64,000 bases of DNA from Eledone cirrhosa (GCA_964016885.1 OZ024757.1:5828001-5892000), one strand, 5' to 3'. Positions 2,862-64,000 are shown, counted from the first letter of the stretch. A program made the numbers and translations. Notes: a model not told the origin generated them from the letters alone.

Positions 2862-3527
2862 ATGTCTGAATATAGCTGTGAGATTTGTAGGAAAACTTTC
2901 TCTTCAAAACTGAAACTATCCTCACACGAGAAAATACACAGAGGAGCAAAACCCTTCCATTGTGAAATATGTGGGAAATCTTGTGTCTTGAACAGTGATT
3001 TAAAAAGGCATATAAGAACACACACTGGAGAAAAACCTTTTGCATGTGAAATATGTGGGAACTCTTTTCCTCATGTTGCTAATCTTGTAAAACACAAAAG
3101 AATACATACTGGTGAAAAACCTTATTCATGTGAAATATGTGGGAAATCTTTTTCTAGTAATTCTATTCTTGTACAGCACAAAAGAATACACACAGGAGAA
3201 AGGCCTTTTTCATGTGACATATGTGGGAAATCTTTTTCTCAGAGTTCTCATATTGAACATCACAAAAGAATACACACTGGTGAAAAACCTTATTCATGTG
3301 ACATATGTGGGAAATCTTTCTCTAGTAATTCTACACTTGTAGTTCACAAAAGAACACACACGGGTGAAAAACCCTTCCATTGTGAAATATGTGGGAAATC
3401 TTTTTCTAATAGTTCTCATCTTGTAAAACACAAAAGAAAACACACTTGTGAAAAACCTTATTCATGTGAAATATGTGGGAAATCTTTCTCTCAGAATTCG
3501 TCACTGGTTGTTCACCTACGTAGTTAA
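2862..3527 (+). CDS. Tandem C2H2 (Kruppel-type) zinc-finger protein, 7 complete fingers plus an 8th lacking its final His
   Basis: CxxC-x12-HxxxH repeats with TGEKP linkers. ATG at 2862, possible splice acceptor (cag/tag) near 2813-2818, AATAAA near 4652. No KRAB/BTB-type effector domain is visible. Confidence 0.9.
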   Translation: MSEYSCEICRKTFSSKLKLSSHEKIHRGAKPFHCEICGKSCVLNSDLKRHIRTHTGEKPFACEICGNSFPHVANLVKHKRIHTGEKPYSCEICGKSFSSNSILVQHKRIHTGERPFSCDICGKSFSQSSHIEHHKRIHTGEKPYSCDICGKSFSSNSTLVVHKRTHTGEKPFHCEICGKSFSNSSHLVKHKRKHTCEKPYSCEICGKSFSQNSSLVVHLRS

Positions 3528-8622: not shown

Positions 8623-8874
8623 ATGTCTGAATATAGCTGTGAGATTTGCAGGAAAACTTTCTCTTCAAAACTGAAACTATCCTCACACGAGAAAATACAC
8701 ACTGGAGAAAAACCCTTCCACTGTGAAATATGTGGGAAATCTTTTACTGATAATTCTAATCTTGTCATCCACATACGGAGTCACACTGGAGAGAAACCCT
8801 TCCATTGTGAAATATGTGGGAAATCTTTCACATGGAATTCTTCGCTGGTTGTTCACAAATGTAGTCAACACTAG
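8623..8874 (+). CDS. Short 3-finger C2H2 paralog of 2862..3527 (possibly a pseudogene)
   Basis: Finger 1 is identical at the protein level ([26 protein letters not shown]) and the flanks are homologous. The third finger ends HKCSQH-stop. Confidence 0.75.
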
Positions 8875-9386
8875 TGATAAACCCCATCACTGTGAAATGT
8901 GAAACACACAAATATACAGACACACTCTGGAAAGAAGAAAATAAATATATATATGTGTGTTTGTCTGTGTGTGTATATATATACATATATAAATATATAT
9001 ATTGCTACTGAGGATAGGATGACCTGATGAGCTGCCTCCTGTGGTAGATACCTAAACATTGTAAGACCCTAGTGGGATGACTGAGATTGACCTACATAGA
9101 TCAGATGTCACAGGATGTCCAGCTGGAGATTAATGATCTCAGGAATGCCATGGAAGATCATGACATCTAAAAAAGAAGTGTAGAATTGTTCTGGCAAATC
9201 CACCTGACCTAATAAATGATAATAATAATAAGATATATTGATGAACATTTATTATGGTGAAATATGTTGAAAATCATTCTCAGATGTTTTGTATTGTAAT
9301 CCACAATGAAGTTCTACTTCATGAAGTTCTACTTCATATTATTTGGCATTAAGGTTTCTTATAGAGACTCCTCATTTCATTGTTGA

Positions 9387-13400: not shown

Positions 13401-13531
13401 GGTGTTAGGAAGGGCATCCAGCTGTAGAAAACCTGCCAGATACAGTCCTATACGAGCGAGACACGGTCACCCGATCATTTCCTATCTAACCCATGCTAGC
13501 GTGGAAGATGGACATTAAACGATGATGATGA
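10500..13531 (+). pseudogene. Decayed RTE-clade LINE (APE endonuclease + RT)
   Basis: GVGIML, IIAGDLKGHIG, GFGTRNEEG, DLEKAFDRVP, VGVQQGPILS and LLYSDDL motifs. Many stops and frameshifts, an internal deletion near 11830, and a (gat)n tail. Confidence 0.93.
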
Positions 13532-14145
13532 ATTGTATTAATATATATACATACATAATAATACAAGGACGAATAGTTACTGCTTCATTACATTTATTGG
13601 TTGGTGACACATGTTTCACTATTGATCAGCTCAAGGTTTGATCTGTATCAATACAGATCAAACCTTGAGCTGATCAATAACGAAACATGTGTCACCAACC
13701 AATAAAAGTAATGAAGGTGTAACCTTTTGTCCTTGTATTATTCTATTACACTCTGTCTAGCTCCACACTTCACTACAGACGTGAACCTAAAGATGGAGTG
13801 CTCACCCAGGTGAACCTACAGTAACTCCGTGTTACACTCCCTGGATATATACATATATATAATGTGGGTAATATTAAATATTATCCAATTACAAGTATGA
13901 CAATAGCTCAATGTAAAACAACAAATATAATACAGAGGTGAAATATAATTTATTAATAACATTTTTTGTATTAATTTTTTTATAAATTTTAATAATATTC
14001 AGCTTTTTACTCTACATCGATTAATTATTTTATTGTATTTGCTAATATATTATTGTAAAGTTATTATTAATAATTTTAAAAATAATTCTCTAGTTGTATA
14101 ATCATTAGCCCTAATATTTATTATTGTTATTATTACACCTTGACT

Positions 14146-14310
14146 AGGGCAGTGGATTGGTAGAGGGTCGGACACCGTGCTTTGCAGCATAGAGTTACGG
14201 CCCTTTACGGTCTGAGTTGAAATCCTGCCGATGATAACTTTGCCATTGATAAAATAAATTACCAGTAATGCACTGGGGTAATTGCCGGCCTTGTGCCAAA
14301 ATTAGAAACA
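14146..14310 (+). mobile_element. SINE copy
   Basis: Same head, B box and tail (ggccttgtgccaaaattagaaac), flanked by attattaca on both sides. Confidence 0.8.
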
Positions 14311-14458
14311 ATTATTACATTTGAAGTATAACAGATTATCTATATACTTAAGACTGAAAGATGTAGTTGAACTTTTTATTATAAATATATTAAAAATATA
14401 TTTTGAAGATGTATTTTTACATTCTTAAATTTATATTTGATCCATGCACTAGCTTTAG

Positions 14459-16672
14459 TCATCATCATCATCATTTTATGACCGCTTTTCTCTGCTTGCA
14501 AGGGTGGGACGGGTCCTATTCAGCACAGCATCACTCCCCTTGTCACGGTCCTTCGTCATCTCCTCCGTGTGTTTCAGTGATCTGAGGTCTGCTCTCACCA
14601 CCTCCACCCATGTTTTTCGTGGTCTTCCTCTATTGTGTCTTCTTTCTACCGGGATTTCTTGGCACTTCTTTACCCAGTGGTCATCCTCCATGTTCATCAC
14701 ATGTCCATACCATCTCAGTCTTCTCTCCCGCACACCACAACTTATCCCTCTTATATCCAGTTTCTTTCTCAACTCGTCTATGCTTGGTCGTTCACGCATA
14801 TTGACATTGCACATCCAACAGAGCATGCTCGCTTCATTTCTCTGCAGCCATCACATATTCTCTGTACTTGCTGTCCATGTCTCACTACCATGCAGCATTG
14901 CACATCTCACACAGGCATCATATAACCGGCCTTTCGTATGCAGGGAGAAACCCTTACTTGTGAACAGAGGAAGCAGCTCCCTAAACTTCTTCCAACCCGT
15001 CCTTATTCTAGATACTATGGCCTCGGAACACTCTCCTCCCATGCTAATCTGATCACCTAGGTACCGGAAGCTATCAACCACTTCTATAGAGCCATATGCA
15101 TTGGAAAAATGTGTCTATCACTGTGATTACTACAGTCAACTTTCCCTGTACATCTACTGCATACATAGTTTTCCATACCTGTTAGTTTACCTGCTATCCC
15201 ACTACATCTCTTGTGTACCCAAGATCCGCATTACGTAGATTTTATAGAATTTATGCCAGTTCCTTTTCTACATATCGAACATGGCCATTTCCCTGATGTA
15301 ATCAGAGTATTGTCCTCTCTGTCCTTCTATGTTCACTCTCAGTCCTCTTGCTTCCAACTGCTGTTTCCATAGCCAGATTTTATTCTCTAGCTCCTCTACT
15401 GATTCTGCTATAAGAACCAGATCATCAGCATAGAGAAGTTCCCATGGGTATCCAGTCTTAAACTCCTCTGTTATGGCTTGGAGGACTATAATAAACAAGA
15501 GCGGGCTGAGGACCGAACACTGATGTACACCTACTTGTATCTGGAACTCCTCACTAGACTCCATTCCTACCCTCAATTTACTGACAGCACCCCCTGAACA
15601 CAGCTTGCACTGTCCTCAGAAGCCATTCCTCTACACCTAGTTTCCTTAGGGACCACCAAATGACAGATTGGGGTACCCTATCAAAGGCCTTCTCTAAGTC
15701 AACAAAAGCTAAGTATAGTGACTTATTCTTCTCTAAGAACCTCTCTTGTAGTTGTCTCACTAAGAAGAGGGCATGTTGTACTTTTCTGAGGCACAAAACC
15801 AAACTGCATCTAATCTAATTTGACCCTTTCTCTAATTAGTTGCACTAATATTCTCTCTGCCACTTTCATAACCTGATCCATCAGCTTTATGCCCATATAA
15901 TTGCTCCTCTACAGAGCATCCCCTTTACCTTTGTACCAATTTATGAGAATACTGCAGCACCAGTCTTTGGGTATGACACCACCATATATAGCTTGATTGA
16001 TGATGTGTACAACCAGTTTAGTGCCTACTTTTCCTGATGCCTTCAGCATCTCAGCAACTATCCCGGACGGTCCAGCTGCCTTACCATTTTTCATTTCCTT
16101 AATTGCCTCTTGTACCCTATATTGGCCAATCTCAATAGCTGGTCCCTCTGTCGGGTTTACTGGGGATAGTTTCCCTCTCTCCCATTCATTCTCCACATTC
16201 ATCAGCCTCTCATGATGACATTTCCAGGCCTCCTATTTTTGATAAGTCGTAACACTAAGTACACCGTCATCATTCCGGACACACTTATCTCCAACATCAT
16301 CCTGATTTACACTGACACACTGCCTTGCAATGTGGAACACCGCACGCCTCTGATCTTCCCATCACAGAACATTGGCAAACCTCCTACTCTCAGCCTCCGT
16401 GCGTGCTAAGTACACCTGACGTCTAGCTTCTTTCTTAGCGGCCGTATATCCTATTCCACTCCCACCATTTTTCCAAGGCTTCCATGCTAGTCTTTTGTCT
16501 CTAATGGCCTTATCTACCGTGTTGTCCCACCACCAGGTCACTCTCTGTCTGGTCGGAGCTCTGCTCCAGCCACAAGTTTCTTCAGTAGCCTGCAGTAAGT
16601 TGTCACGTAAGAATTTCCAGTTATCATCTATGTCATACAACTCTAAAACGTCTTCTTTCTCGTCATACACAT
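14459..16672 (-). pseudogene. Decayed, 5'-truncated RTE-clade LINE of a second subfamily
   Basis: KAAGPSG, FVDLEKAFDRVP, LLYADDL, FRYLGD, RLRWYGHV and RGRPRKTW motifs, with a (gat)n tail at 14459-14475. Confidence 0.93.
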
Positions 16673-24985: not shown

Positions 24986-25044
24986 AAGTAGTATTGTTGG
25001 TTGTAATAGTAGTAGTGTTGGTAGTAGTAGTATCAATAATAGTA

Positions 25045-28000
25045 GTAGCAGTAGCAGTAACCTCTTAACACGTTGTTGCCATAGTAATAGTAATACTATA
25101 GTAGTTGTAGTAGTAGCAGTAGCAGTAACCCCTTAACACGTTGTTGCCATAGTAATAGTAATACTATAGTAGTTGTAGTAGTAGCAGTAGCAGTAACCCC
25201 TTAACACGTTGTTGCCATAGTAATAGTAATACTATAGTAGTTGTAGTAGTAGCAGTAACCCCTTAACACGTTGTTGCCATAGTAATAGTAATACTATAGT
25301 AGTTGTAGTAGTAGCAGTAGCAGTAACCCCTTAACACGTTGTTGCCATAGTAATAGTAATACTATAGTAGTTGTAGTAGTAGCAGTAGCAGTAACCCCTT
25401 AACACGTTGTTGCCATAGTAATAGTAATACTATAGTAGTTGTAGTAGTAGCAGTAGCAGTAACCCCTTAACACGTTGTTGCCATAGTAATAGTAATACTA
25501 TAGTAGTTGTAGTAGTAGCAGTAGCAGTAACGCCTTAACACGTTGTTGCCATAGTAATAGTAATACTATAGTAGTTGTAGTAGTAGCAGTAGCAGTAACC
25601 CCTTAACATGTTGTTGCCATAGTAATAGTAATACTATAGTAGTTGTAGTAGTAGTAGTAGCAGTAACCCCTTAACATGTTGTTGCCATAGTAATAGTAAT
25701 ACTATAGTAGTTGTAGTAGTAGCAGTAGCAGTAACCCCTTAACACGTTGTTGCCATAGTAATAGTAATACTATAGTAGTTGTAGTAGTAGCAGTAGCAGT
25801 AACCCCTTAACACGTTGTTGCCATAGTAATAGTAATACTATAGTAGTAGTAGCAGTAGCAATAACCCCTTAACACGTTGTTGCCATAGTAATAGTAATAC
25901 TATAGTAGTTGTAGTAGTAGCAGTAGCAGTAACCCCTTAACACGTTGTTGCCATAGTAATAGTAATACAATAGTAGTTGTAGTAGTAGCAGTAGCAGTAA
26001 CCCCTTAACACGTTGTTGCCATAGTAATAGTAATACTATAGTAGTTGTAGTAGTAGCAGTAGCAGTAACCCCTTAACAGGTTGTTGCCATAGTAATAGTA
26101 ATACTATAGTAGTAGTAGCAGTAGCAATAACCCCTTAACACGTTGTTGCCATAGTAATAGTAATACTATAGTAGTTGTAGTAGTAGCAGTAGCAGTAACC
26201 CCTTAACACGTTGTTGCCATAGTAATAGTAATACTATAGTAGTAGTAGCAGTAGCAATAACCCCTTAACACGTTGTTGCCATAGTAATAGTAATACTATA
26301 GTAGTTGTAGTAGTAGCAGTAGCAGTAACCCCTTAACACGTTGTTGCCATAGTAATAGTAATACTATAGTAGTTGTAGTAGTAGCAGTAGCAGTAACCCC
26401 TTAACACGTTGTTGCCATAGTAATAGTAATACAATAGTAGTTGTAGTAGTAGCAGTAGCAGTAACCCCTTAACACGTTGTTGCCATAGTAATAGTAATAC
26501 TATAGTAGTTGTAGTAGTAGCAGTAGCAGTAAACCCTTAAAACGTTGTTGCCATAGTAATAGTAATACTATAGTAGTTGTAGTAGTAGCACTAGCAGTAA
26601 ACCCTTAACATGTTGTTGCCATAGTAATAGTAATACTATAGTAGTAGTAGCAGTAGCAGTAACCCCTTAACACGTTGTTGCCATAGTAATAGTAATACTA
26701 TAGTAGTTGTAGTAGTAGCAGTAGCAGTAACCCGTTAACCCGTTGTTGCCATAGTAATAGTAATACTATAGTAGTTGTAGTAGTAGCAGTAGCAGTAACC
26801 CGTTAACCCGTTGTTGCCATAGTAATAGTAATACTATAGTAGTTGTAGTAGTAGCAGTAGCAGTAACCCCTTAACACGTTGTTGCCATAGTAATAGTAAT
26901 ACTATAGTAGTTGTAGTAGTAGCAGTAGCAGTAACCCCTTAACACGTTGTTGCCATAGTAATAGTAATACTATAGTAGTTGTAGTAGTAGCAGTAACCCC
27001 TTAACACGTTGTTGCCATAGTAATAGTAATACTATAGTAGTTGTAGTAGTAGCAGTAGCAGTAACCCGTTAACCCGTTGTTGCCATAGTAATAGTAATAC
27101 TATAGTAGTTGTAGTAGTAGCAGTAACCCCTTAACACGTTGTTGCCATAGTAATAGTAATACTATAGTAGTTGTAGTAGTAGCAGTAGCAGTTACCCCTT
27201 AACACGTTGTTGCCATAGTAATAGTAATACTATAGTAGTTGTAGTAGTAGCAGTAGCAGTAACCCCTTAACACGTTGTTGCCATAGTAATAGTAATACTA
27301 TAGTAGTTGTAGTTGTAGCAGTAGCAGTAACCCCTTAACACGTTGTTGCCATAGTAATAGTAATACTATAGTAGTTGTAGTAGTAGCAGTAACCCCTTAA
27401 CACGTTGTTGCCATAGTAATAGTAATACTATAGTAGTTGTAGTAGTAGCAGTAGCAGTAACCCCTTAACACGTTGTTGCCATAGCAATAGTAATACTATA
27501 GTAGTTGTAGTAGTAGCAGTAGCAGTAACCCCTTAACACGTTGTTGCCATAGTAATAGTAATACAATAGTAGTTGTAGTAGTAGCAGTAGCAGTAACCCC
27601 TTAACACGTTGTTGCCATAGTAATAGAAATACTATAGTAGTTGTAGTAGTAGCAGTAGCAGTAACCCCTTAACAGGTTGTTGCCATAGTAATAGTAATAC
27701 TATAGTAGTAGTAGCAGTAGCAATAACCCCTTAACACGTTGTTGCCATAGTAATAGTAATACTATAGTAGTTGTAGTAGTAGCAGTAGCAGTAACCCCTT
27801 AACACGTTGTTGCCATAGTAATAGTAATACTATAGTAGTAGTAGCAGTAGCAATAACCCCTTAACACGTTGTTGCCATAGTAATAGTAATACTATAGTAG
27901 TTGTAGTAGTAGCAGTAGCAGTAACCCCTTAACACGTTGTTGCCATAGTAATAGTAATACTATAGTAGTTGTAGTAGTAGCAGTAGCAGTAACCCCTTAA

Positions 28001-29852
28001 CACGTTGTTGCCATAGTAATAGTAATACAATAGTAGTTGTAGTAGTAGCAGTAGCAGTAACCCCTTAACACGTTGTTGCCATAGTAATAGTAATACTATA
28101 GTAGTTGTAGTAGTAGCAGTAGCAGTAAACCCTTAAAACGTTGTTGCCATAGTAATAGTAATACTATAGTAGTTGTAGTAGTAGCACTAGCAGTAAACCC
28201 TTAACATGTTGTTGCCATAGTAATAGTAATACTATAGTAGTAGTAGCAGTAGCAGTAACCCCTTAACACGTTGTTGCCATAGTAATAGTAATACTATAGT
28301 AGTTGTAGTAGTAGCAGTAGCAGTAACCCGTTAACCCGTTGTTGCCATAGTAATAGTAATACTATAGTAGTTGTAGTAGTAGCAGTAGCAGTAACCCGTT
28401 AACCCGTTGTTGCCATAGTAATAGTAATACTATAGTAGTTGTAGTAGTAGCAGTAGCAGTAACCCCTTAACACGTTGTTGCCATAGTAATAGTAATACTA
28501 TAGTAGTTGTAGTAGTAGCAGTAGCAGTAACCCCTTAACACGTTGTTGCCATAGTAATAGTAATACTATAGTAGTTGTAGTAGTAGCAGTAACCCCTTAA
28601 CACGTTGTTGCCATAGTAATAGTAATACTATAGTAGTTGTAGTAGTAGCAGTAGCAGTAACCCGTTAACCCGTTGTTGCCATAGTAATAGTAATACTATA
28701 GTAGTTGTAGTAGTAGCAGTAACCCCTTAACACGTTGTTGCCATAGTAATAGTAATACTATAGTAGTTGTAGTAGTAGCAGTAGCAGTAACCCCTTAACA
28801 CGTTGTTGCCATAGTAATAGTAATACTATAGTAGTTGTAGTAGTAGCAGTAGCAGTAACCCCTTAACACGTTGTTGCCATAGTAATAGTAATACTATAGT
28901 AGTTGTAGTTGTAGCAGTAGCAGTAACCCCTTAACACGTTGTTGCCATAGTAATAGTAATACTATAGTAGTTGTAGTAGTAGCAGTAACCCCTTAACACG
29001 TTGTTGCCATAGTAATAGTAATACTATAGTAGTTGTAGTAGTAGCAGTAGCAGTAACCCCTTAACACGTTGTTGCCATAGCAATAGTAATACTATAGTAG
29101 TTGTAGTAGTAGCAGTAGCAGTAACCCCTTAACACGTTGTTGCCATAGTAATAGTAATACTATAGTAGTTGTAGTAGTAGCAGTAACCCCTTAACACGTT
29201 GTTGCCATAGTAATAGTAATACTATAGTAGTTGTAGTAGTAGCAGTAGCAGTAACCCCTTAACACGTTGTTGCCATAGCAATAGTAATACTATAGTAGTT
29301 GTAGTAGTAGCAGTAGCAGTAACCCCTTAACACGTTGTTGCCATAGTAATAGTAATACTATAGTAGTTGTAGTAGTAGCAGTAGCAGTAACCCCTTAACA
29401 CGTTGTTGCCATAGCAATAGTAATACTATAGTAGTTGTAGTAGTAGCAGTAGCAGTAACCCCTTAACACGTTGTTGCCATAGTAATAGTAATACTATAGT
29501 AGTTGTAGTAGTAGCAGTAGCAGTAACCCGTTAACCCGTTGTTGCCATAGTAATAGTAATACTATAGTAGTTGTAGTAGTAGCAGTAGCAGTAACCCCTT
29601 AACACGTTGTTGCCATAGTAATAGTAATACTATAGTAGTTGTAGTAGTAGCAGTAGCAGTAACCCCTTAACACGTTGTTGCCATAGTAATAGTAATACTA
29701 TAGTAGTTGTAGTAGTAGCAGTAGCAGTAACCCCTTAACACGTTGTTGCCATAGTAATAGTAATACTATAGTAGTTGTAGTAGTAAGAGTAGCAGTAACC
29801 CCTTAACACGTTGTTGCCATAGTAATAGTAATACTATAGTAGTTGTAGTAGT
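25045..29852. repeat. 68-bp satellite array 1 (~70 units, with 62-bp variants)
   Basis: Unit aaccccttaacacgttgttgccatagtaatagtaatactatagtagttgtagtagtagcagtagcagt. Confidence 0.97.
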
Positions 29853-29977
29853 AAGAGAACAAAAGTTTGTTGTACAAACTTTTGTTCCATTTTTCTGTTG
29901 TTGTTGTTGTTGTTGTTTACAGTGACGGAGGGGGGGGCAAAAGCTAAAAACACCAACATTATCTCTGTTGTTAGTAA

Positions 29978-35377: not shown

Positions 35378-35504
35378 GCGTAGTAAAAGTAGTGTTGGTA
35401 GTAGTAGTGGTGATAGTAGTAGTAGTAGTGGTGGTAGTAGTAGTAGAAGTAGTATTGTTGGTTGTAATAGTAGTAGTGTTGGTAGTAGTAGTATCAATAA
35501 TAGT

Positions 35505-38500
35505 AGTAGCAGTAGCAGTAACCTCTTAACACGTTGTTGCCATAGTAATAGTAATACTATAGTAGTTGTAGTAGTAGCAGTAGCAGTAGCCCCTTAACAC
35601 GTTGTTGCCATAGTAATAGTAATACTATAGTAGTTGTAGTAGTAGCAGTAGCAGTAGCCCCTTAACACGTTGTTGCCATAGTAATAGTAATACTATAGTA
35701 GTAGTAGTAGTAGCAGTAACCTCTTAACATGTTGTTGCCATAGTAATAGCAATACTATAGTAGTTGTAGTAGTAGCAGTAGCAGTAACCCCTTAACACGT
35801 TGTTGCCATAGTAATAGTAATACTATAGTAGTTGTAGTAGTAGCAGTAGCAGTAGCCCCTTAACACGTTGTTGCCATAGTAATAGTAATACTATAGTAGT
35901 TGTAGTAGTAGCAGTAGCAGTAACCCCTTAACACGTTGTTGCCATAGTAATAGTAATACTATAGTAGTAGTAGCAGTAGCAGTAGCAGTAACCCCTTAAC
36001 ACGTTGTTGCCATAGTAATAGTAATACTATAGTAGTAGTAGCAGTAGCAGTAGCCCCTTAACACGTTGTTGCCATAGTAATAGTAATACTATAGTAGTTG
36101 TAGTAGTAGCAGTAGCAGTAACCTCTTAACATGTTGTTGCCATAGTAATAGTAATACTATAGTAGTAGTAGCAGTAGCAGTAACCCCTTAACACGTTGTT
36201 GCCATAGTAATAGTAATACTATAGTAGTTGTAGCAGTAGCAGTAACCCCTTAACACGTTGTTGCCATAGTAATAGTAATACTATAGTAGTAGTAGCAGTA
36301 GCAGTAACCCCTTAACACGTTGTTGCCATAGTAATAGTAATACTATAGTAGTAGTAGTAGTAGTAGTAGCAGTAACCCCTTAACACGTTGTTGCCATAGT
36401 AATAGTAATACTATAGTAGTAGTAGCAGTAGCAGTAGCAGTAACCCCTTAACACGTTGTTGCCATAGTAATAGTAATACTATAGTAGTTGTAGTAGTAGC
36501 AGTAGCAGTAACCCCTTAACACGTTGTTGCCATAGTAATAGTAATACTATAGTAGTTGTAGTAGTAGCAGTAGCAGTAACCCCTTAACACGTTGTTGCCA
36601 TAGTAATAGTAATACTATAGTAGTTGTAGTAGTAGCAGTAGCAGTAACCCCTTAACACGTTGTTGCCATAGTAATAGTAATACTATAGTAGTTGTAGTAG
36701 TAGCAGTAGCAGTAACCCCTTAACACGTTGTTGCCATAGTAATAGTAATACTATAGTAGTTGTAGTAGTAGCAGTAGCAGTAACCCCTTAACACGTTGTT
36801 GCCATAGTAATAGTAATACTATAGTAGTTGTAGTAGTAGCAGTAGCAGTAACCCCTTAACACGTTGTTGCCATAGTAATAGTAATACTATAGTAGTTGTA
36901 GTAGTAGCAGTAGCAGTAACCCCTTAACACGTTGTTGCCATAGTAATAGTAATACTATAGTAGTTGTAGTAGTAGCAGTAGCAGTAACCCCTTAACACGT
37001 TGTTGCCATAGTAATAGTAATACTATAGTAGTTGTAGTAGTAGCAGTAGCAGTAACCCCTTAACACGTTGTTGCCATAGTAATAGTAATACTATAGTAGT
37101 TGTAGTAGTAGCAGTAGCAGTAACCCCTTAACACGTTGTTGCCATAGTAATAGTAATACATAGTAGTTGTAGTAGTAGCAGTAGCAGTAACCCCTTAACA
37201 CGTTGTTGCCATAGTAATAGTAATACTATAGTAGTTGTAGTAGTAGCAGTAGCAGTAACCCCTTAACACGGTTGCCATAGTAATAGTAATACTATAGTAG
37301 TTGTAGTAGTAGCAGTAGCAGTAACCCCTTAACACGTTGTTGCCATAGTAATAGTAATACTATAGTAGTTGTAGTAGTAGCAGTAGCAGTAACCCCTTAA
37401 CACGTTGTTGCCATAGTAATAGTAATACTATAGTAGTTGTAGTAGTAGCAGTAGCAGTAACCCCTTAACACGTTGTTGCCATAGTAATAGTAATACTATA
37501 GTAGTTGTAGTAGTAGCAGTAGCAGTAACCCCTTAACACGTTGTTGCCATAGTAATAGTAATACTATAGTAGTTGTAGTAGTAGCAGTAGCAGTAACCCC
37601 TTAACACGTTGTTGCCATAGTAATAGTAATACTATAGTAGTTGTAGTAGTAGCAGTAGCAGTAACCCTTAACACGTTGTTGCCATAGTAATAGTAATACT
37701 ATAGTAGTTGTAGTAGTAGCAGTAGCAGTAACCCCTTAACACGTTGTTGCCATAGTAATAGTAATACTATAGTAGTTGTAGTAGTAGCAGTAGCAGTAAC
37801 CCCTTAACACGTTGTTGCCATAGTAATAGTAATACTATAGTAGTTGTAGTAGTAGCAGTAACCCCTTAACACGTTGTTGCCATAGTAATAGTAATACTAT
37901 AGTAGTTGTAGTAGTAGCAGTAGCAGTAACCCCTTAACACGTTGTTGCCATAGTAATAGTAATACTATAGTAGTTGTAGTAGTAGCAGTAGCAGTAACCT
38001 TAACACGTTGTTGCCATAGTAATAGTAATACTATAGTAGTTAGTAGTAGTAGCAGTAACCTCTTAACACGTTGTTGCCATAGTAATAGTAATACTATAGT
38101 AGTTGTAGTAGTAGCAGTAGCAGTAACCCCTTAACACGTTGTTGCCATAGTAATAGTAATACTATAGTAGTTGTAGTAGTAGCAGTAGCAGTAACCCTTA
38201 ACACGTTGTTGCCATAGTAATAGTAATACTATAGTAGTTGTAGTAGTAGCAGTAGCAGTAACCCCTTAACACGTTGTTGCCATAGTAATAGTAATACTAT
38301 AGTAGTTGTAGTAGTAGCAGTAGCAGTAACCCCTTAACACGTTGTTGCCATAGTAATAGTAATACTATAGTAGTTGTAGTTGTAGTAGTAGCAGTAACCC
38401 CTTAACACGTTGTTGCCATAGTAATAGTAATACTATAGTAGTTGTAGTAGTAGTAGTAGTAGCAGTAACCCCTTAACACGTTGTTGCCATAGTAATAGTA

Positions 38501-38608
38501 ATACTATAGTAGTTGTAGTAGTAGCAGTAGCAGTAACCCCTTAACACGTTGTTGCCATAGTAATAGTAATACTATAGTAGTTGTAGTAGTAGCAGTAGCA
38601 GTAACCCC
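35505..38608. repeat. 68-bp satellite array 2, running into the gap
   Basis: Same unit as array 1 and preceded by the same leader (35180-35520, matching 24745-25060). Confidence 0.97.
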
Positions 38609-38808
38609 NNNNNNNNNNNNNNNNNNNNNNNNNNNNNNNNNNNNNNNNNNNNNNNNNNNNNNNNNNNNNNNNNNNNNNNNNNNNNNNNNNNNNNNNNNNN
38701 NNNNNNNNNNNNNNNNNNNNNNNNNNNNNNNNNNNNNNNNNNNNNNNNNNNNNNNNNNNNNNNNNNNNNNNNNNNNNNNNNNNNNNNNNNNNNNNNNNNN
38801 NNNNNNNN
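38609..38808. other. Assembly gap (200 N)
   Basis: Run of N. The true distance across it is unknown. Confidence 0.99.
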
Positions 38809-46080
<7,272 letters not shown>

Positions 46081-49000
46081 ATAATATAAGATCAAAAGAT
46101 GGTTAAAGGAGTTCAATATATTTTATTATGCGCATTTCAAAAACAAACATCATCAAACAATAATATTTGTGTTTTCATCAGATAAAACAGGAGAACATGA
46201 TATGAAGGCTAAAAAAACACTTGTTGATAGTGCAGTTTTAAATCAACATATGAAAAGTGGTTTTAGATTGATGTGTGATATTGGGAAAAATATTTTATTT
46301 AGAGAGGGGGGGAGAGAAAAGGATGAAAAAGGGAAGGAGATGAGAGGGAGAGATGGGTGATAGAGAGAAAGAGATAGTTTTTATAACAGAGAGGAGATAT
46401 ATTTTATATAGAGGGGTTGAAAACCGTTGGAAGATACTGTATAAATTAAAAATTTGAAAATTAACGAAGGGAGGATATGTGCGAGGAAAAAATATATTAT
46501 ATTTAGGGAGGGGTGGGGGTGGAAAGGATGAAAAAAAGGGGAGGAGATGAGAGTGAAGGTGGAAAGGGAGAGATGGGTGATAGAGAGAAAGAGATAGTTT
46601 TTATAACTGAGAAAAAGATATAATGTTTTAATATAGAGAGGTTGGGAACCGTTGGAAGATAATGTATAAATTAAAGGAATTTGAAAATTAACGAAGGGAA
46701 ATTATGTATGGAGATAGAGAGAAAAAAATAACGAAGGGAGATTATGTCTGGAGATAGAGAGAAAAAAAAAATTAAAAAAAAAAAAAAAAAAAAAATAATA
46801 ATTGTGGGTGAATATTCAAAAGGAGAAATGTAGGAATCTTAAAATTAGCAAAGAGAAAATGTTTATGTATAGGATTTGAGAAAAATAATGTGAAGTTAAA
46901 GTTTTTATATTGAATTCATATGTATTAATAATGAGTTCGTTGATGGGGAGAAAAAAATAATAATAAATTAAGGATGAAATTGAGATTAAAAAGATTTATG
47001 ATAGAGAGAAAAAATAATAATGATTGCGGATGAATACTCAAAATGTCAAAAACAAATGTTATTGTTTTACGAAGAGATATAATGAGGGTGATGAGTAAAC
47101 GGGTATTATAGAGTGTATAATGCCCTTTAAAGTAAGGTAGATGGGTATATTTTAAAGAATATATGAGTATATATTAAAAAAAATATATATAATAATAAAT
47201 TAAGGATGAAATTGAGATTAAAAAGATTTATGATAGAGGGAAAAAAAAATAATAATGATTGCGGATGAATATTCAAAATGTCAAAAACAAATGTTATTGT
47301 TTTACGAGAAGATAGGATGAGGTAAATGAATAAACGAGTACTATAGAGTGTATAATGCCCTTTAAAGTAAGGTGGATGGGTATATTTTAAAGAGGTGTAT
47401 GTATATGTGCCTTTGAGAAAAGATTCTAAATTGATAAAGAATTGAATATTAACTGTATACTTTGTGAAAAGTTCTATGGAATTTATGAAGGCAGATGGAA
47501 AACAAATCCGAGCGTCTATTTATTATGGATTCTAGGTTAGAGATAATGGTAAATTTTTCATTTAGGCAGAGATTACAGATTTTAGATAGAGAACTGTTCA
47601 AGTACGAGGATGCAGAAGAAATCTTTTTCCAAAAGATGTTATATTTAATGTTTTTGTCTTTTAAGGACCATATGAGTTCTGAGAGAGCAGTGTTAGTTCT
47701 TTTAAGTTTGTATTTGAAAGATGAATGATGATTATAGAGACGAGCTTTAAAAGAGGTGGAAGTGGAGCCAAAATAGGTGAAGGAGTTGGTGCTAGTTATA
47801 ATTTTACATTCATAAATTAAGTTTTTATCGAGGCAATGGTTGTTGAGAGGACATTTATTTTTAATGCGGCAGTTGCAATTAGAGAGATTATTAATGAGTG
47901 ATCTAGTGTTATCTATAGAAGGAATTGGATTGGAGAAGTTGTTTGCGATAGGAATAATAGTTTCTTGATTTAGAGTTGGATTATGAACATTTAGCGAAGT
48001 TGTGTTTGACGTTGCATTTGGGTTTACAGAAGTTAGCCTAGGGTTTACAATGACGTCAGGAGTACTATTATTGTTATTATGAGATTCAATATTGGAAGGA
48101 AGAGATTTAGTATTTAATATTTTGTTGTTGTGTTTAGAAATGATGTTGGAAATATTGGAGGATGTAGAATACGAAAATTTAATGGTGTGTTTGTTAAATA
48201 TTTTACTATAGATATGTGAGGGAGGGAAGCATTTATTTAAGGCACTAAAAAATAATTTAGGAATATTGTTATTAATAGAGATGGAGAAAGGAGCATTATA
48301 CCAGATTATGTTTTTGTATCTAGGTCTTTTATTAAAATTATTGGAATGGTTATGATTAAATATTCTACTGTAAGTTTTCCTAGAATTTGTTTCTTTATTA
48401 TATTTGATTTTATCTGGATAGCCAGCTTTAGAAAGTGCGTTATTATAGTAATTGGCGTTAGCATCAAAGATGTTTTTATTAGAAGATATGTTAGATATTC
48501 TATTTCCAATATTATTAACTATAGCATTCTTGATATTGGTAGGATGGTTAGATTTAAAGTTAACATAATTAAGATTCTCATTGTTTTTATGGTAAGGGTA
48601 ATATAGGCCAGTGTCAAGATTAAGAGATACATCCAAGAAATTAGCTAGTTTGGTACTATTATCAAATTCAATTTTTAGGTTATGTTGGTTAAAGAGATTA
48701 CGTATATTGTTCTTAATAATATTAAGTTTAACTATATTGCAATTTAGGATAGTAAAGAGTCCATCGTCACGATAAATTCCACCGCGAATTTGAGGAATTT
48801 TCCGACTCAAAGAGTTCAAAATGAAGATACCAATTAAATCAGTCAATTGGGATGAATCGGATGCTCCCATTGTGATGTCGAAGTTGTTAGAGGTATCGGC
48901 TCTGGTCCAATATTCGTTGTTGAACTCTAGGATGGTTTTACGTGCGGTGAGGATGATGTGAAGTTCATCTGTGGTGATGTCAGAATATTTAAGTGCGAAA

Positions 49001-49162
49001 GATAGAGCATTATTGAGAAGTGAAGGCGAAATGGAGGAATAGTAGCTGGCAATATCGAATTGAATAAATTTTAGTTTGTTTTTATTATCCAATTTGTTGA
49101 ACCAGCCAATCACTTCAGAAGTACCAAACCATAAATTTAGGTTTAAAGAAGAGCAATTAGAA
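46081..49162 (-). mobile_element. Inverted, further-truncated second copy of the same PLE
   Basis: Reverse complement of 49654-52730. The ORF 47449-49162 differs by L/I, R/L and a 3-aa indel. Confidence 0.95.
46121..46187 (-). ncRNA. Type I hammerhead ribozyme (inverted copy)
   Basis: Reverse complement of 52624-52690. Confidence 0.85.
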
Positions 49163-49174
49163 TTGTTGGAAGGA

Positions 49175-51376
49175 AATCCTCCTTCCAACAAAAATCTAGC
49201 ACAATTCGAGGAAGAATTAACTAAAATTATAAAAAATCTTAAATTCAAGAGATACCCTTACAAAGGACAAGAGCACCTTGTAAATCTCAAGAACACAATC
49301 TCTAACCTAAATTCCTCAAAAAATGTTTTAGTCCACTCTGACAAAACCAATAACCTATATGGTATTTCCAAGGATAATTATAACAACCTTATCCTAAAGG
49401 AACTTAGGAAAAAGTATCGTAAAACCAACCATGAAAATTTAGAATGCATAAACCTTGAAGCCTATGAGATTATGTCAAAACTTGGCATTGAAAAAAAGAC
49501 CGAACCATTCCTCCCAAGAACTCCGAGGATAAATCTCAAGGATCACAAAAACAATTTTCGCACTGAACTACCTGTTAGATTAATCGCCCCCTCTAAATCT
49601 GATCTGGGGGTTGTTAGTAAAGCCATCTTGGATAGGATTATCCCACAGGTTAGTTCTAATTGCTCTTCTTTAAACCTAAATTTATGGTTTGGTACTTCTG
49701 AAGTGATTGGCTGGTTCAACAAATTGGATAATAAAAACAAACTAAAATTTATTCAATTCGATATTGCCAGCTACTATTCCTCCATTTCGCCTTCACTTCT
49801 CAATAATGCTCTATCTTTCGCACTTAAATATTCTGACATCACCACAGATGAACTTCACATCATCCTCACCGCACGTAAAACCATCCTAGAGTTCAACAAC
49901 GAATATTGGACCAGAGCCGATACCTCTAACAACTTCGACATCACAATGGGAGCATCCGATTCATCCCAATTGACTGATTTAATTGGTATCTTCATTTTGA
50001 ACTCTTTGAGTCGGAAAATTCCTCAACTTCGCGGTGGAATTTATCGTGACGATGGACTCTTTACTATCCTAAATTGCAATATAGTTAAACTTAATATTAT
50101 TAAGAACAATATACGTAATCTCTTTAACCAACATAACCTAAAAATTGAATTTGATAATAGTACCAAACTAGCTAATTTCTTGGATGTATCTCTTAATCTT
50201 GACACTGGCCTATATTACCCTTACCATAAAAACAATGAGAATCTTAATTATGTTAACTTTAAATCTAACCATCCTACCAATATCAAGAATGCTATAGTTA
50301 ATAATATTGGAAATAGAATATCTAACATATCTTCTAATAAAAACATCTTTGATGCTAACGCCAATTACTATAATAACGCACTTTCTAAAGCTGGCTATCC
50401 AGATAAAATCAAATATAATAAAGAAACAAATTCTAGGAAAACTTACAGTAGAATATTTAATCATAACCATTCCAATAATTTTAATAAAAGACCTAGATAC
50501 AAAAACATAATCTGGTATAATGCTCCTTTCTCCATCTCTATTAATAACAATATTCCTAAATTATTTTTTAGTGCCTTAAATAAATGCTTCCCTCCCTCAC
50601 ATATCTATAGTAAAATATTTAACAAACACACCATTAAATTTTCGTATTCTACATCCTCCAATATTTCCAACATCATTTCTAAACACAACAACAAAATATT
50701 AAATACTAAATCTCTTCCTTCCAATATTGAATCTCATAATAACAATAATAGTACTCCTGACGTCATTGTAAACCCTAGGCTAACTTCTGTAAACCCAAAT
50801 GCAACGTCAAACACAACTTCGCTAAATGTTCATAATCCAACTCTAAATCAAGAAACTATTATTCCTATTATTCCTATCGCAAACAACTTCTCCAATCCAA
50901 TTCCTTCTATAGATAACACTAGATCACTCATTAATAATCTCTCTAATTGCAACTGCCGCATTAAAAATAAATGTCCTCTCAACAACCATTGCCTCGATAA
51001 AAACTTAATTTATGAATGTAAAATTATAACTAGCACCAACTCCTTCACCTATTTTGGCTCCACTTCCACCTCTTTTAAAGCTCGTCTCTATAATCATCAT
51101 TCATCTTTCAAATACAAACTTAAAAGAACTAACACTGCTCTCTCAGAACTCATATGGTCCTTAAAAGACAAAAACATTAAATATAACATCTTTTGGAAAA
51201 AGATTTCTTCTGCATCCTCGTACTTGAACAGTTCTCTATCTAAAATCTGTAATCTCTGCCTAAATGAAAAATTTACCATTATCTCTAACCTAGAATCCAT
51301 AATAAATAGACGCTCGGATTTGTTTTCCATCTGCCGTCATAAATTCCATAGAACTTTTCACAAAGTATACAGTTAA
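49175..51376 (+). CDS. PLE polyprotein (RT + GIY-YIG endonuclease), open frame with the N-terminus missing
   Basis: SDKTNNLY, LKDHK, FDIASYYSSI, FDITMG, IYRDDGL and NFLDV motifs; a CNCR..CPL...C linker; then LIY...YFG.T...FKARLYNH..SF...CNLCLNEK...NRRSDL..CRH. The first ~33 aa of the listed 49076 ORF come from the inverted arm and the junction. Confidence 0.9.
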   Translation, partial: NPPSNKNLAQFEEELTKIIKNLKFKRYPYKGQEHLVNLKNTISNLNSSKNVLVHSDKTNNLYGISKDNYNNLILKELRKKYRKTNHENLECINLEAYEIMSKLGIEKKTEPFLPRTPRINLKDHKNNFRTELPVRLIAPSKSDLGVVSKAILDRIIPQVSSNCSSLNLNLWFGTSEVIGWFNKLDNKNKLKFIQFDIASYYSSISPSLLNNALSFALKYSDITTDELHIILTARKTILEFNNEYWTRADTSNNFDITMGASDSSQLTDLIGIFILNSLSRKIPQLRGGIYRDDGLFTILNCNIVKLNIIKNNIRNLFNQHNLKIEFDNSTKLANFLDVSLNLDTGLYYPYHKNNENLNYVNFKSNHPTNIKNAIVNNIGNRISNISSNKNIFDANANYYNNALSKAGYPDKIKYNKETNSRKTYSRIFNHNHSNNFNKRPRYKNIIWYNAPFSISINNNIPKLFFSALNKCFPPSHIYSKIFNKHTIKFSYSTSSNISNIISKHNNKILNTKSLPSNIESHNNNNSTPDVIVNPRLTSVNPNATSNTTSLNVHNPTLNQETIIPIIPIANNFSNPIPSIDNTRSLINNLSNCNCRIKNKCPLNNHCLDKNLIYECKIITSTNSFTYFGSTSTSFKARLYNHHSSFKYKLKRTNTALSELIWSLKDKNIKYNIFWKKISSASSYLNSSLSKICNLCLNEKFTIISNLESIINRRSDLFSICRHKFHRTFHKVYS

Positions 51377-52623
51377 TATTCAATTCTTTATCAATTTAGA
51401 ATCTTTTCTCAAAGGCACATATACATACACCTCTTTAAAATATACCCATCCACCTTACTTTAAAGGGCATTATACACTCTATAGTACTCGTTTATTCATT
51501 TACCTCATCCTATCTTCTCGTAAAACAATAACATTTGTTTTTGACATTTTGAATATTCATCCGCAATCATTATTATTTTTTTTCCCTCTATCATAAATCT
51601 TTTTAATCTCAATTTCATCCTTAATTTATTATTATATATATTTTTTTTTAATATATACTCATATATTCTTTAAAATATACCCATCTACCTTACTTTAAAG
51701 GGCATTATACACTCTATAATACCCGTTCTCTCATCACCCTCATTATATCTCTTCGTAAAACAATAACATTTGTTTTGACATTTTGAGTATTCATCCGCAA
51801 TCATTATTATTTTTTCTCTCTATCATAAATCTTTTTAATCTCAATTTCATCCTTAATTTATTATTATTTTTTTCTCCCCATCAACGAACTCATTATTAAT
51901 ACATATGAATTCAATATAAAAACTTTAACTTCACATTATTTTTCTCAAATCCTATACATAAACATTTTCTCTTTGCTAATTTTAAGATTCCTACATTTCT
52001 CCTTTTGAATATTCACCCACAATTATTATTTTTTTTTTTTTTTTTTCTCTCTATCTCCATACATAATCTCCCTTCGTTATTTTTTTCTCTCTATCTCCAT
52101 ACATAATTTCCCTTCGTTAATTTTCAAATTCCTTTAATTTATACATTATCTTCCAACGGTTCCCAACCTCTCTATATTAAAACATTATATCTTTTTCTCA
52201 GTTATAAAAACTATCTCTTTCTCTCTATCACCCATCTCTCCCTTTCCACCTTCACTCTCATCTCCTCCCCTTTTTTTCATCCTTTCCACCCCCACCCCTC
52301 CCTAAATATAATATATTTTTTCCTCGCACATATCCTCCCTTCGTTAATTTTCAAAATTTTTAATTTATACAGTATCTTCCAACGGTTTTCAACCCCTCTA
52401 TATAAAATATATCTCCTCTCTGTTATAAAAACTATCTCTTTCTCTCTATCACCCATCTCTCCCTCTCATCTCCTTCCCTTTTCTTCCTTTTCTCTCCCCC
52501 CCTCTCTAAATAAAATATTTTTCCCAATATCACACATCAATCTAAAACCACTTTTCATATGTTGATTTAAAACTGCACTATCAACAAGTGTTTTTTTTTT
52601 AGCCTTCATATCATGTTCTCCTG

Positions 52624-52690
52624 TTTTATCTGATGAAAACACAAATATTATTGTTTGATGATGTTTGTTTTTGAAATGCGCATAATAAAA
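52624..52690 (+). ncRNA. Type I hammerhead ribozyme
   Basis: Stem I ttttat/ataaaa; CTGATGA at 52630-36; long G-U-rich stem II; GAAA at 52673-76; palindromic stem III ATGCGCAT; AUA cleavage triplet ending at 52684. Confidence 0.85.
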
Positions 52691-52815
52691 TATATTGAAC
52701 TCCTTTAACCATCTTTTGATCTCATATTATGCATACTCCAGTCCACAAACTGTAGAGTGCTTCTTATCCGATATCTGCATTGCTTTATTGTACTACAATA
52801 AAACTCACCTCCTAC

Positions 52816-56470
<3,655 letters not shown>

Positions 56471-56965
56471 AACTTTGAAATGTTTTGGCCAGTATTGGCC
56501 CAGGCCATGTCTAACTTAATAGCACCACCTGGCGAAGTCTTTCAATTCAGGATTTGGGCACCATGGCCCATTCGAGAAGAGAATTACTGTTTGCGGAGAC
56601 ATATCCGGGTGTGGGTGGTTTGTCCGGGATTACTTGGAGGAATTTGTCCAAAGACTTCTTGAATTTTGTGTGGTCAGTTTCTGTTTTGACGTGTCCTGGT
56701 GTGATGTTGAAGAGAGCAGGGCCGATTGAGGTGAAATAATTGTGCCGTATTGTTGTTATGAGTTGCGATTTAGATTTTTGAATGGGACGGATAGCACGGG
56801 GCCCAAGCCTTGGGTGTATCTTGAAGGCGATGCCAACATCATTTGGGCAGTGATGATGGAACATTTTCCACATCATGCAGATAATATAACGCTCACGGCG
56901 ACGTTGGAGTGAGTAAAGTTTCAGGTTTTCCAATCGACCCCAGTAGTCAAGGTCTGACATGCCAT
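56471..56965 (-). mobile_element. CR1-group LINE 3' end inserted in (TA)n
   Basis: Open frame [22 protein letters not shown]...[19 protein letters not shown]...NSL, followed by a short 3' UTR. Confidence 0.85.
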
Positions 56966-56974
56966 CTATCTATA

Positions 56975-57013
<39 letters not shown>

Positions 57014-57129
57014 GTATATATATATGTATATATATATGAATATATATATGTATATATATATATATATGTATATATATATGTATATGTATATATATATGTA
57101 TATATATATGTATATGTATATATATATGT

Positions 57130-57171
<42 letters not shown>

Positions 57172-57350
57172 ATATATGTATATGTATATATATATGTATA
57201 TATATATGTATATATATATATGTATATGTATATATATATATGTATATGTATATATATATGTATATATATATGTATATGTATATATATATGTATATATATA
57301 TGTATATGTATATGTATATATATATGTATATATATATGTATATATATATG

Positions 57351-57383
<33 letters not shown>

Positions 57384-57412
57384 GTATATATATATATATG
57401 TATATATATATG

Positions 57413-57443
<31 letters not shown>

Positions 57444-57478
57444 GTATATATATATGTATATATATATATATGTATATA

Positions 57479-57521
<43 letters not shown>

Positions 57522-57522
57522 G

Positions 57523-57586
<64 letters not shown>

Positions 57587-57616
57587 TGTATATGTATATA
57601 TATGTATATATATATG

Positions 57617-57687
<71 letters not shown>

Positions 57688-57708
57688 TTGTATATATATA
57701 TATATGTA

Positions 57709-57751
<43 letters not shown>

Positions 57752-57846
57752 GTATATATATATATGTATATGTATATATATATATTTGTATATATATATA
57801 TATGTATGTATATATATTTGTATATATATATATATGTATGTATATG

Positions 57847-57912
<66 letters not shown>

Positions 57913-58449
57913 CATACATATATATATATATACAAATAAGTGACCTGACATAAGTGTGTATGTATGTATATGTATGTATATATGTATGTATATATATATA
58001 TGTATGTATATATGTATATATATGTATATATGTATGTATATATGTGTATATATGTATATATGTATGTATATATGTATGTATGTATATATGTATATATATG
58101 TATGTATATATGTATATATATGTATGTATGTATGTATATATATGTATATATGTATGTATGTATATATATGTATATATGTATATATGTATATATATATATA
58201 TATGTATATATATGTATATATGTATATATATAAATATGTATATATGTATATATATAAATATGTATATATGTATATATATAAATATGTATATATGTATATA
58301 TATAAATATGTATATATGTATATATATAAATATGTATATATGTATATATATAAATATGTATATATGTATATATATAAATATGTATATATGTATATATATG
58401 AATGTGTATATATGTATATATGTAGATATGTATATATATATGTATGTAT
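56966..58449. repeat. (TA)n/TATG microsatellite
   Basis: Directly visible. It includes a 24-bp sub-repeat at ~58230-58390. Confidence 0.97.
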
Positions 58450-58858
58450 GGAGAGATGACCCCTTAGCCTTTGTCAAGGCAGAATTCTAGGAGAAGGAAA
58501 ACTCTGATATAACACCTGCAACCCTGATGGTATCCAATGATGTTGACTTGTTCTTCTTTTTGGTAAATATCATCTTGGTTAAGAGAGTGGGACTGGCTTT
58601 GTGCAGTGCCTTTGCTCACTATAAAAGCTTCACGGCACAGGCATTGCTTTATATCTGGAGATCTCTCTGCATTTGTCGTCACATGGTACCATGGGCCCAG
58701 CACTATGTGTCAATAATTGTCACAAGTGTAGTGTTTGTACCAGAGCTTTCAAGTCGCTGGCTGGACTAAAAAGTCACACTCGTTCAGCGCATCAGTAGGG
58801 GTTCTCCTACATGGATATAAAGTAGTGGCCGTACTCGAAAACGAGTTGGCAGCCACCA
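58450..58858 (+). mobile_element. 5'-truncated second copy of the RTE derivative at 33717
   Basis: Near-identical to 33918-34314 and encodes an intact [22 protein letters not shown]. Confidence 0.8.
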
Positions 58859-63915
<5,057 letters not shown>

Positions 63916-63929
63916 ATACTCCATATAAT

Positions 63930-64000
63930 ATACTCCAGTCCTACAAACTGCAGAGTGCTTCTTATCCGATATCTGCATTGCTTTATTGTACTACAATAAA
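63930..64000 (+). mobile_element. Solo copy of the PLE 3'-terminal extension
   Basis: Matches 52733-52802 with two differences. Confidence 0.8.

Follow-up and report, generated by a model that had tools for sequence, protein, structure and literature searches.

Inverted copies in Penelope-like elements

Inverted 5′-truncated copies are described as frequent in Penelope-like elements (PLEs) by Craig et al. (2021, PMC8557442), and head-to-head repeats with palindromes at their junctions are reported as common in the same elements (PMC3846280). The former account states the origin of the inverted 5′ copies and of the one-sided tails as open. Biochemical data come from PAc, a Poseidon PLE of Anolis carolinensis, which in vitro nicks both strands of an AT-rich DNA, extends them, and starts reverse transcription at two internal sites in its RNA, the interval between them forming the tail (Frangieh et al. 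2024, PMC11167929). Here we analyse a window of 64,000 nt from Eledone cirrhosa (GCA_964016885.1 OZ024757.1:5828001–5892000; positions are counted from the window's first letter), in which the interval 46081–52815 is a head-to-head join of two 5′-truncated copies of a Hydra-type PLE.

The Hydra clade, as described in PMC8557442, includes Hydra-1_Obim of Octopus bimaculoides. Its members are recognized there by a DKT motif, a CxCX5C linker, an endonuclease (EN) without CCHH, CxxC and CxH motifs near the conserved E and N residues, a hammerhead ribozyme motif, and (TA)n targets. They further carry an N-terminal RWK motif without GxKF/Y, and are usually shorter than 3 kb, a tendency rather than a rule.

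Two unequal copies joined head to head

The inverted copy occupies 46081–49162 on the minus strand (3082 nt) and has the deeper 5′ truncation; its 3′ end corresponds to ~52730 in the coordinates of the plus-strand copy, which is the commonest 3′ end of the family. The plus-strand copy spans ~49175 to 52815 and measures at least 3.64 kb despite its own truncation. A sequence-only reading of the locus had proposed two near-identical, recently formed inverted arms, and the alignments bear this out. A blastn search pairs 49654–52735 (+) with 49162–46076 (−) at 98.7% identity over 3101 columns, and a global alignment of 46081–49162 (−) with 49654–52730 (+) contains eight substitutions and eight gap events in 3063 columns, a substitution difference of 0.26% that fits a recent age. 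One of the gaps is a 9-bp in-frame tandem duplication found in the plus arm only, and five of the eight gap differences lie in homopolymer runs.

The pair is not the symmetric dimer that the same reading had described. On the 5′ side the plus copy holds extra coding sequence, and on the 3′ side it carries a tail of ~85 nt. The supposed ~490-bp spacer (49163–49653) is in fact the in-frame 5′ coding part of the plus copy, with its DKT motif and reverse transcriptase (RT) motifs 1–2, which rules out a spacer of non-element DNA. The claim of open RT and GIY-YIG frames in both arms holds insofar as the plus frame is stop-free to the same stop codon as the minus frame, but neither frame is complete, both being 5′-truncated. 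In the plus copy, a stop-free open reading frame (ORF) of 733 codons (49175–51376, plus strand) encodes DKT, the RT, the thumb, an asparagine-rich (N-rich) linker, CxCX5C, and a GIY-YIG domain that lacks CCHH and bears CxxC and CxH. The remnant in the minus copy (47449–49162, minus strand) has 570 codons and encodes RT motifs A–E, the thumb, the N-rich linker, CxCX5C and GIY-YIG; it begins after RT motif 2 and is missing DKT and RT motifs 1–2.

Compared with 85 homologs that start with methionine, the plus copy is short by a median of 61 N-terminal residues, including the RWK region and the start codon. Its first in-frame methionine falls past DKT, at residue 137 of the conceptual protein P0001, and an autonomous dimer was ruled out on this ground. 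Neither copy looks autonomous, since both are 5′-truncated and without a start codon.

At the 5′ break of the plus copy lies a hairpin (49163–49191) with a 12-bp stem (49163–49174 paired with 49180–49191) and a 5-nt loop. It folds at −20.7 kcal/mol (z = −5.8), none of 200 shuffled sequences folded as well, and it is lengthened by 4 nt that match the beginning of the minus arm. No TA or other target DNA was seen at the head-to-head junction; the two 5′ breaks abut directly through the hairpin. The insertion shows no direct pseudo-long terminal repeat (pLTR) upstream; the inverted copy and the one-sided tail are present.

The 3′ untranslated region (UTR), hammerhead motif and tail

The 3′ UTR of the plus copy (51377–52730, plus strand) is 1.35 kb long and contains a 235-bp tandem duplication (51432–51867) and a second duplication of ~220 bp (52101–52522). 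Near its end, a custom descriptor identifies a putative type I hammerhead ribozyme motif (52622–52692, plus strand; core at 52630) with a long stem II and an AUA cleavage triplet, mirrored in the minus arm at 46119–46189 (minus strand). Within the window the descriptor matches in the two arms alone, and none of 2000 shuffled UTRs matched it. Stem III is weak, and the minimum-energy fold (z = −1.6) does not contain it; a scan of the whole window against Rfam at the gathering threshold returned no match. Two of the family variants listed from other sequencing runs (see below) fall inside the motif (52654–5), in the stem II loop.

The tail (52731–52815, plus strand) is present in the plus arm only, and elsewhere in a subset of family copies. 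The locus accordingly has two 3′ ends, 100 and 185 nt past the hammerhead core. A further tail-only piece of the same family (63922–64000, plus strand; 94% identity) is preceded by TA and runs off the window's end; it may represent either a very short copy or a full-length unit of which just the beginning lies inside the window.

Protein features and clade assignment

The element encodes a single ORF with an RT and, at the C terminus, a GIY-YIG domain, the arrangement of EN-containing (EN+) PLEs. The YRDD and other RT motifs align with those of 14 homologs, and the best fold matches of an AlphaFold model (mean predicted local distance difference test score, pLDDT, 73) are reverse transcriptases, with TERT at rank 2. 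The GIY-YIG domain was assigned by its motifs (LIYEC..YFG, R, H, E, N), read against PMC8557442. Pfam, in a local copy, gave no significant match for the element protein or for three homologs, and a profile search of PDB sequences with the element protein gave none.

At E ≤ 1e-20, 154 homologs were recovered in a protein search, and their identity does not exceed ~40%. We compared motifs with the 88 homologs of at least 640 aa. DKT replaces DKG in the plus copy (HSDKT) and in 75 of these homologs, and the CxCX5C linker, CNCRIKNKC in both arms, likewise occurs in 75. A CxxC lies beside the conserved E (CNLCLNE in both arms; 86 homologs) and a CxH beside the conserved N (CRH in the plus arm, CLH in the minus arm; 85 homologs). 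CCHH is absent from the GIY-YIG domain, where a single cysteine, not conserved in the alignment, stands between the GIY-like and YIG-like motifs. The RWK region has been lost here by 5′ truncation; strict RWK is found in 53 of the 88 homologs, and the two nearest rows read RWR and RWM. At 3.64 kb or more, the element does not follow the tendency of the clade to lengths below 3 kb.

Taken together, these motif tests support assignment of the element to the Hydra clade of PLEs. The proposed Hydra-type affinity thus stands as a motif-based assignment, with DKT, CxCX5C, the lack of CCHH, CxxC, CxH, the hammerhead motif and (TA)n all in agreement, and the cysteine linker (CNCR-x-CPL-x-C) and extra CxxC on which it had been built are both present in the translations. 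Neptune, Nematis and Penelope-Poseidon were rejected on the missing CCHH of the EN and on the lack of a CX2-5CxxC linker, a feature of Neptune and Nematis. Naiad and Chlamys, which have an N-terminal EN, DKA and no canonical hammerhead, were set aside as well: the element has a C-terminal EN, DKT and a hammerhead motif.

A quick tree was built from the query, P0054 and 70 of the 88 long homologs, 72 rows in total, the homologs all being database sequences that are Hydra-like by motif. In it, the query groups with P0003 and P0054 (Shimodaira–Hasegawa-like approximate likelihood ratio test, SH-aLRT, 100; long branches). The members of this group have long and compositionally odd branches, and the grouping may reflect attraction. 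P0054 is an Argonauta hians protein with 38% identity, whose source annotation reads 'GATA zinc finger domain-containing protein 14-like'.

Family copies in independent sequencing runs

Words of the family were found in eight of 12 listed runs (four studies, five organism labels), at 0.24–0.63 of the words sampled. Reads or contigs of four runs (X1, X4, X7 and X10) were aligned to 48900–52815, and the conclusions draw on these four, leaving aside X2, X3, X5, X6 and X8 (0.24 of the words in X8). Pieces with at least 95% identity numbered 62 of 91 in X1, 4445 of 6827 in X4, 8 of 12 in X7 and 7066 of 10,822 in X10. Near-identical copies occur under three organism labels, which may reflect close relatives, mixed samples or horizontal transfer. 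In X1 and X4 the depth, whose sum is not a copy number, climbs steeply toward the 3′ end, matching the expectation for many 5′-truncated copies.

The runs also document both 3′ ends. In X10, 181 and 272 reads turn to (TA)n after 52727 and 52730, where the minus arm ends, and the suggestion that the family targets microsatellites is borne out by these independent reads. A loose end at 52717 in X4 leads into AT-rich sequence that is not (TA)n. The tail is covered by ~1200 reads at 52732 and 52744 in X10 (reduced-representation data), by 23 contigs with a variant at 52732 in X4, and by one contig of X7 across 52701–52761, a borderline bridge. It also follows AT-rich DNA with no element end before it, as loose ends before 52745 in X1, X4 and X7 show. 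The family is multi-copy; most of its copies pass into (TA)n at the point that forms the end of the minus arm, and some have the 85-nt tail.

For a comparison of alleles, we checked 31 sites in the duplicated region, drawn from 40 of 428 variant rows. The two arms share the plus-arm allele at 26 of these sites, the minus arm has the allele of the other runs at four, and one is ambiguous. The 9-bp duplication is missing from 52 of 342 X10 reads.

The (TA)n fields around the element

TA repeats flank the insertion on both sides, as had been noted from the sequence alone. The left (TA)n/(TATATG)n field (38810–46088), the insertion target, begins at an assembly gap of 200 N (38609–38808) and carries G on the plus strand from ~41500 on. 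The right (TA)n/(TATATG)n field (52816–63917) has G on the plus strand and contains two unrelated islands. Over ~18 kb the fields are strand-polar, with G on the plus strand and almost no C; short patches of C polarity near 39660–39900 and 40800–41480 resemble local inversions. The k-mer profiles of the flanks have a cosine of 0.991 when compared directly and 0.001 when mirrored, and no mirror image of the tail or of the islands at 56468 and 58442 was found in the left flank. Breaks in the alternating pattern number 7–13 per kb in the left field, 1–3 per kb in the right field beside the element, and 25 per kb at 56970–58440.

Related loci in metagenomes

An inverted match at the 5′ side was flagged in four of 77 related metagenome loci. 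One of them (L029) was dropped, as the match is distant and only 28 bp long. In the other three (L005, L050 and L063), part of the ORF interior lies inverted directly against the element's 5′ end, at the edge of the contig; the contigs were assembled from short reads, and assembler artefacts may be among them. In L005 the 5′ break beside the inverted piece (position 65) lies at the same KSxxxPP motif as the break of the plus copy here, which may be a coincidence. Elsewhere, L057 has a strong palindrome (1–160; −36 kcal/mol) at the 5′ break of a Hydra-like ORF, and Hydra-like relatives stand tail to tail across short (TA)n in L021 (2504–3117) and L037 (2498–2988).

The hammerhead descriptor matches the element strand in 51 of the 77 loci by hand count, TA follows the hammerhead core at 65–168 nt in 11, and many of these relatives have direct terminal repeats. 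An exact 24-nt pattern from the tail had no match in the metagenome stretches, and a viral sequence collection contained no relative of the element.

Origin of the inverted pair

On balance, we favour a single recent event, modelled on the biochemistry of PAc, in which both target strands were nicked and reverse transcription was primed from each nick. The element's nuclease would have nicked both strands within the (TA)n field. One cDNA would have started at the usual 3′ end of the family, which lies ~100 nt beyond the hammerhead core. The second would have started ~85 nt deeper in the RNA and would thereby have gained the tail. Both would then have stopped early, their free ends being joined via the short snap-back at 49163–49191. 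The two templates would derive from one source lineage; the protein was probably supplied from elsewhere, by a copy of full length, as both copies here lack a start codon. The arms behave as sisters given their 0.26% difference and the plus-arm allele that they share at 26 of 31 sites. The 9-bp indel, absent from about one in seven X10 reads, segregates in the family and therefore fits two templates; together with the natural end of the minus arm, it weakly favours them. Two start sites, in turn, are favoured by the minus arm ending at the commonest family end and by the plus arm ending in a tail known from other runs. We tentatively suggest a more specific form of the double-nick account, in which a single PLE complex introduced a nick into each strand of the self-complementary TA target and made one cDNA from each of two fixed RT start sites ~85 nt apart. 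If true, a two-start-site mechanism seen in vitro for one Poseidon element would extend to the Hydra clade in vivo, and there to a sub-lineage that is divergent, recently active, probably cephalopod, and marked by the unusual length of its tail and 3′ UTR.

Several points weigh against priming from two nicks. Being a tandem duplication, the 9-bp indel could arise more than once through slippage, and the tail-bearing restriction-site-associated DNA (RAD) reads may come from few loci. Among the pieces and joints listed for X1, X4, X7 and X10, none spans the junction 49162|49163. The inverted relatives L005, L050 and L063 have no junction hairpin. The two-start-site biochemistry belongs to another clade, Poseidon, and to a tail of 30–40 nt compared with ~85 nt here. 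Finally, the hairpin and the shared alleles fit the main rival, a fold-back on a single template, equally well. There, a singly primed cDNA would have reached ~49175, snapped back, jumped ~460 nt and been recopied toward the 3′ end, with the nuclease resolving the product at the family's usual 3′ end and leaving a one-sided tail. The 12-bp hairpin sits exactly at the break, with its 4-nt match to the minus arm start, and the 26 of 31 non-majority alleles are common to both arms; self-priming is moreover the reading given to junction palindromes in PMC3846280, and EN-mediated resolution the one given to the tail in PMC8557442. Arms made in this way should be identical at birth, yet they differ by an indel that segregates in the family, and the plus arm alone departs from the other runs at four of the 31 sites. 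All arm differences would need to be later mutations or assembly errors, and we consider such an origin rather unlikely.

The remaining explanations are much less probable. An artefact, whether a chimeric long read that folded back or an assembly error close to the end of a contig, would be in keeping with the N gap at which the left field starts, 7.3 kb from the element, with the denser pattern breaks in that field (7–13 per kb against 1–3 per kb beside the element on the right), with the five gap differences in homopolymer runs, and with the lack of the junction among the independent pieces listed. However, the two TA flanks share the same strand polarity and are not mirrored, which argues against a fold-back read and rules out a simple fold-back mirror; nor does the left flank hold a mirrored tail or mirrored islands. 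The minus arm also stops at the natural 3′ end of the family. A chimera of one molecule is further disfavoured because this arm carries alleles differing from those of the plus arm, with the other runs' allele at four sites and a real family allele at the indel. We therefore judge an artefact very unlikely. Equally hard to sustain is an origin from two independent insertions that hit one TA field, or from later rearrangement of nearby copies by recombination or break repair. The field does collect other sequences (a LINE-like fragment, LINE standing for long interspersed nuclear element, another island, and the tail piece of the family), and tail-to-tail pairs across TA exist in the relatives L021 and L037. 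Two insertions would nonetheless sit poorly with a junction devoid of TA or other target DNA, with 5′ breaks that abut directly through the hairpin, and with arms that are sisters within a diverse family; we think this history highly improbable.

Age and significance

At the substitution rate reported for octopus, 0.0036 per site per million years (PMC13282606), the insertion would be ~0.4 million years old if that rate holds and if all eight substitutions arose after insertion. A younger age would follow from template differences or from errors in the assembly, and gene conversion between the arms would hide age.

The element appears to belong to a new and divergent family; its clade and its architecture are both known. 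Long inverted 5′-truncated copies, junction palindromes, tails and TA targeting have already been published for PLEs, and Hydra elements are known from octopus. The Octopus vulgaris data in PMC13282606 count 31 recently active Penelope-like families, and the present family may be among them under a generic name. We found no publication on this family, or on the end structure of the Hydra clade besides PMC8557442, in a search that left subscription papers and Repbase largely uncovered. The family adds a divergent member to a little-studied clade, one that the local copy of Pfam fails to detect and whose nearest named relative is labelled a GATA zinc finger. Young and multi-copy, with long inverted arms and a pair of defined 3′ ends, it offers many natural events whose arm alleles could separate two-template priming from fold-back.

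Other features of the window

The first island in the right TA field (56468–56969, minus strand) has a translation like a LINE 3′ end, presumably of L2/CR1 type, and no Pfam match; the second (58442–58857) is 416 bp of non-TA sequence. Two arrays of the same TAG-rich 68-bp minisatellite occupy 25040–29853 and 35501–38608, with 72 and 46 copies and 94–96% matches, the second ending at the N gap. C2H2 zinc-finger arrays lie at 2844–3527, where Pfam reports zf-C2H2, and at 8698–8898. A broken non-LTR retroelement spans 10508–14850, with RVT_1 and PHD finger matches in 11966–12760.

Comparison with known systems

Among the systems with inverted pairs, the EN+ Penelope elements of Adineta vaga share with this locus the head-to-head inverted repeats, junction palindromes and optional one-sided tail, as well as inserts rich in asparagine in the stretch linking RT to EN (Arkhipova et al. 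2013, PMC3846280). They differ in being of the canonical Penelope type, in the pLTR-sized inverted parts of the examples given, and in their target-site duplications (PMC3846280); here a duplication is not readable in TA. PAc likewise has two alternative 3′ ends that define a tail and an AT-rich target; it belongs to the Penelope/Poseidon clade, and its tail of ~30–40 nt lies inside the start of the ORF (PMC11167929).

With the Hydra clade described in PMC8557442, the element has in common a single ORF with RT and C-terminal GIY-YIG, DKT, CxCX5C, the missing CCHH, CxxC/CxH, the (TA)n target, and a 3′ hammerhead motif ~100 nt from the end. An inverted partner that retains most of the ORF had been thought unusual; this does not stand, as inverted 5′-truncated copies are called frequent in that source and three of the 77 relatives above show inverted pieces. 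The Hydra-clade element Penelope-13_HM (Repbase; File S1 of PMC8557442) has an inverted copy of 966 nt, compared with 3082 nt here. The element is also longer than is usual for the clade (at least 3.64 kb versus below 3 kb; PMC8557442). Its N-rich linker has 99 residues versus mostly 25–39, ~70 extra, its duplicated 3′ UTR reaches 1.35 kb, and in its hammerhead motif the stem II region measures 36 nt and the triplet is AUA. From Hydra-1_Obim its protein differs widely by eye, and the best database identity is ~40%. In the twin priming of L1 elements, both target strands prime reverse transcription, which produces an inverted 5′ segment from a non-overlapping part of one RNA. Here, in contrast, 3.08 kb is duplicated and both arms reach a 3′ end of the element.

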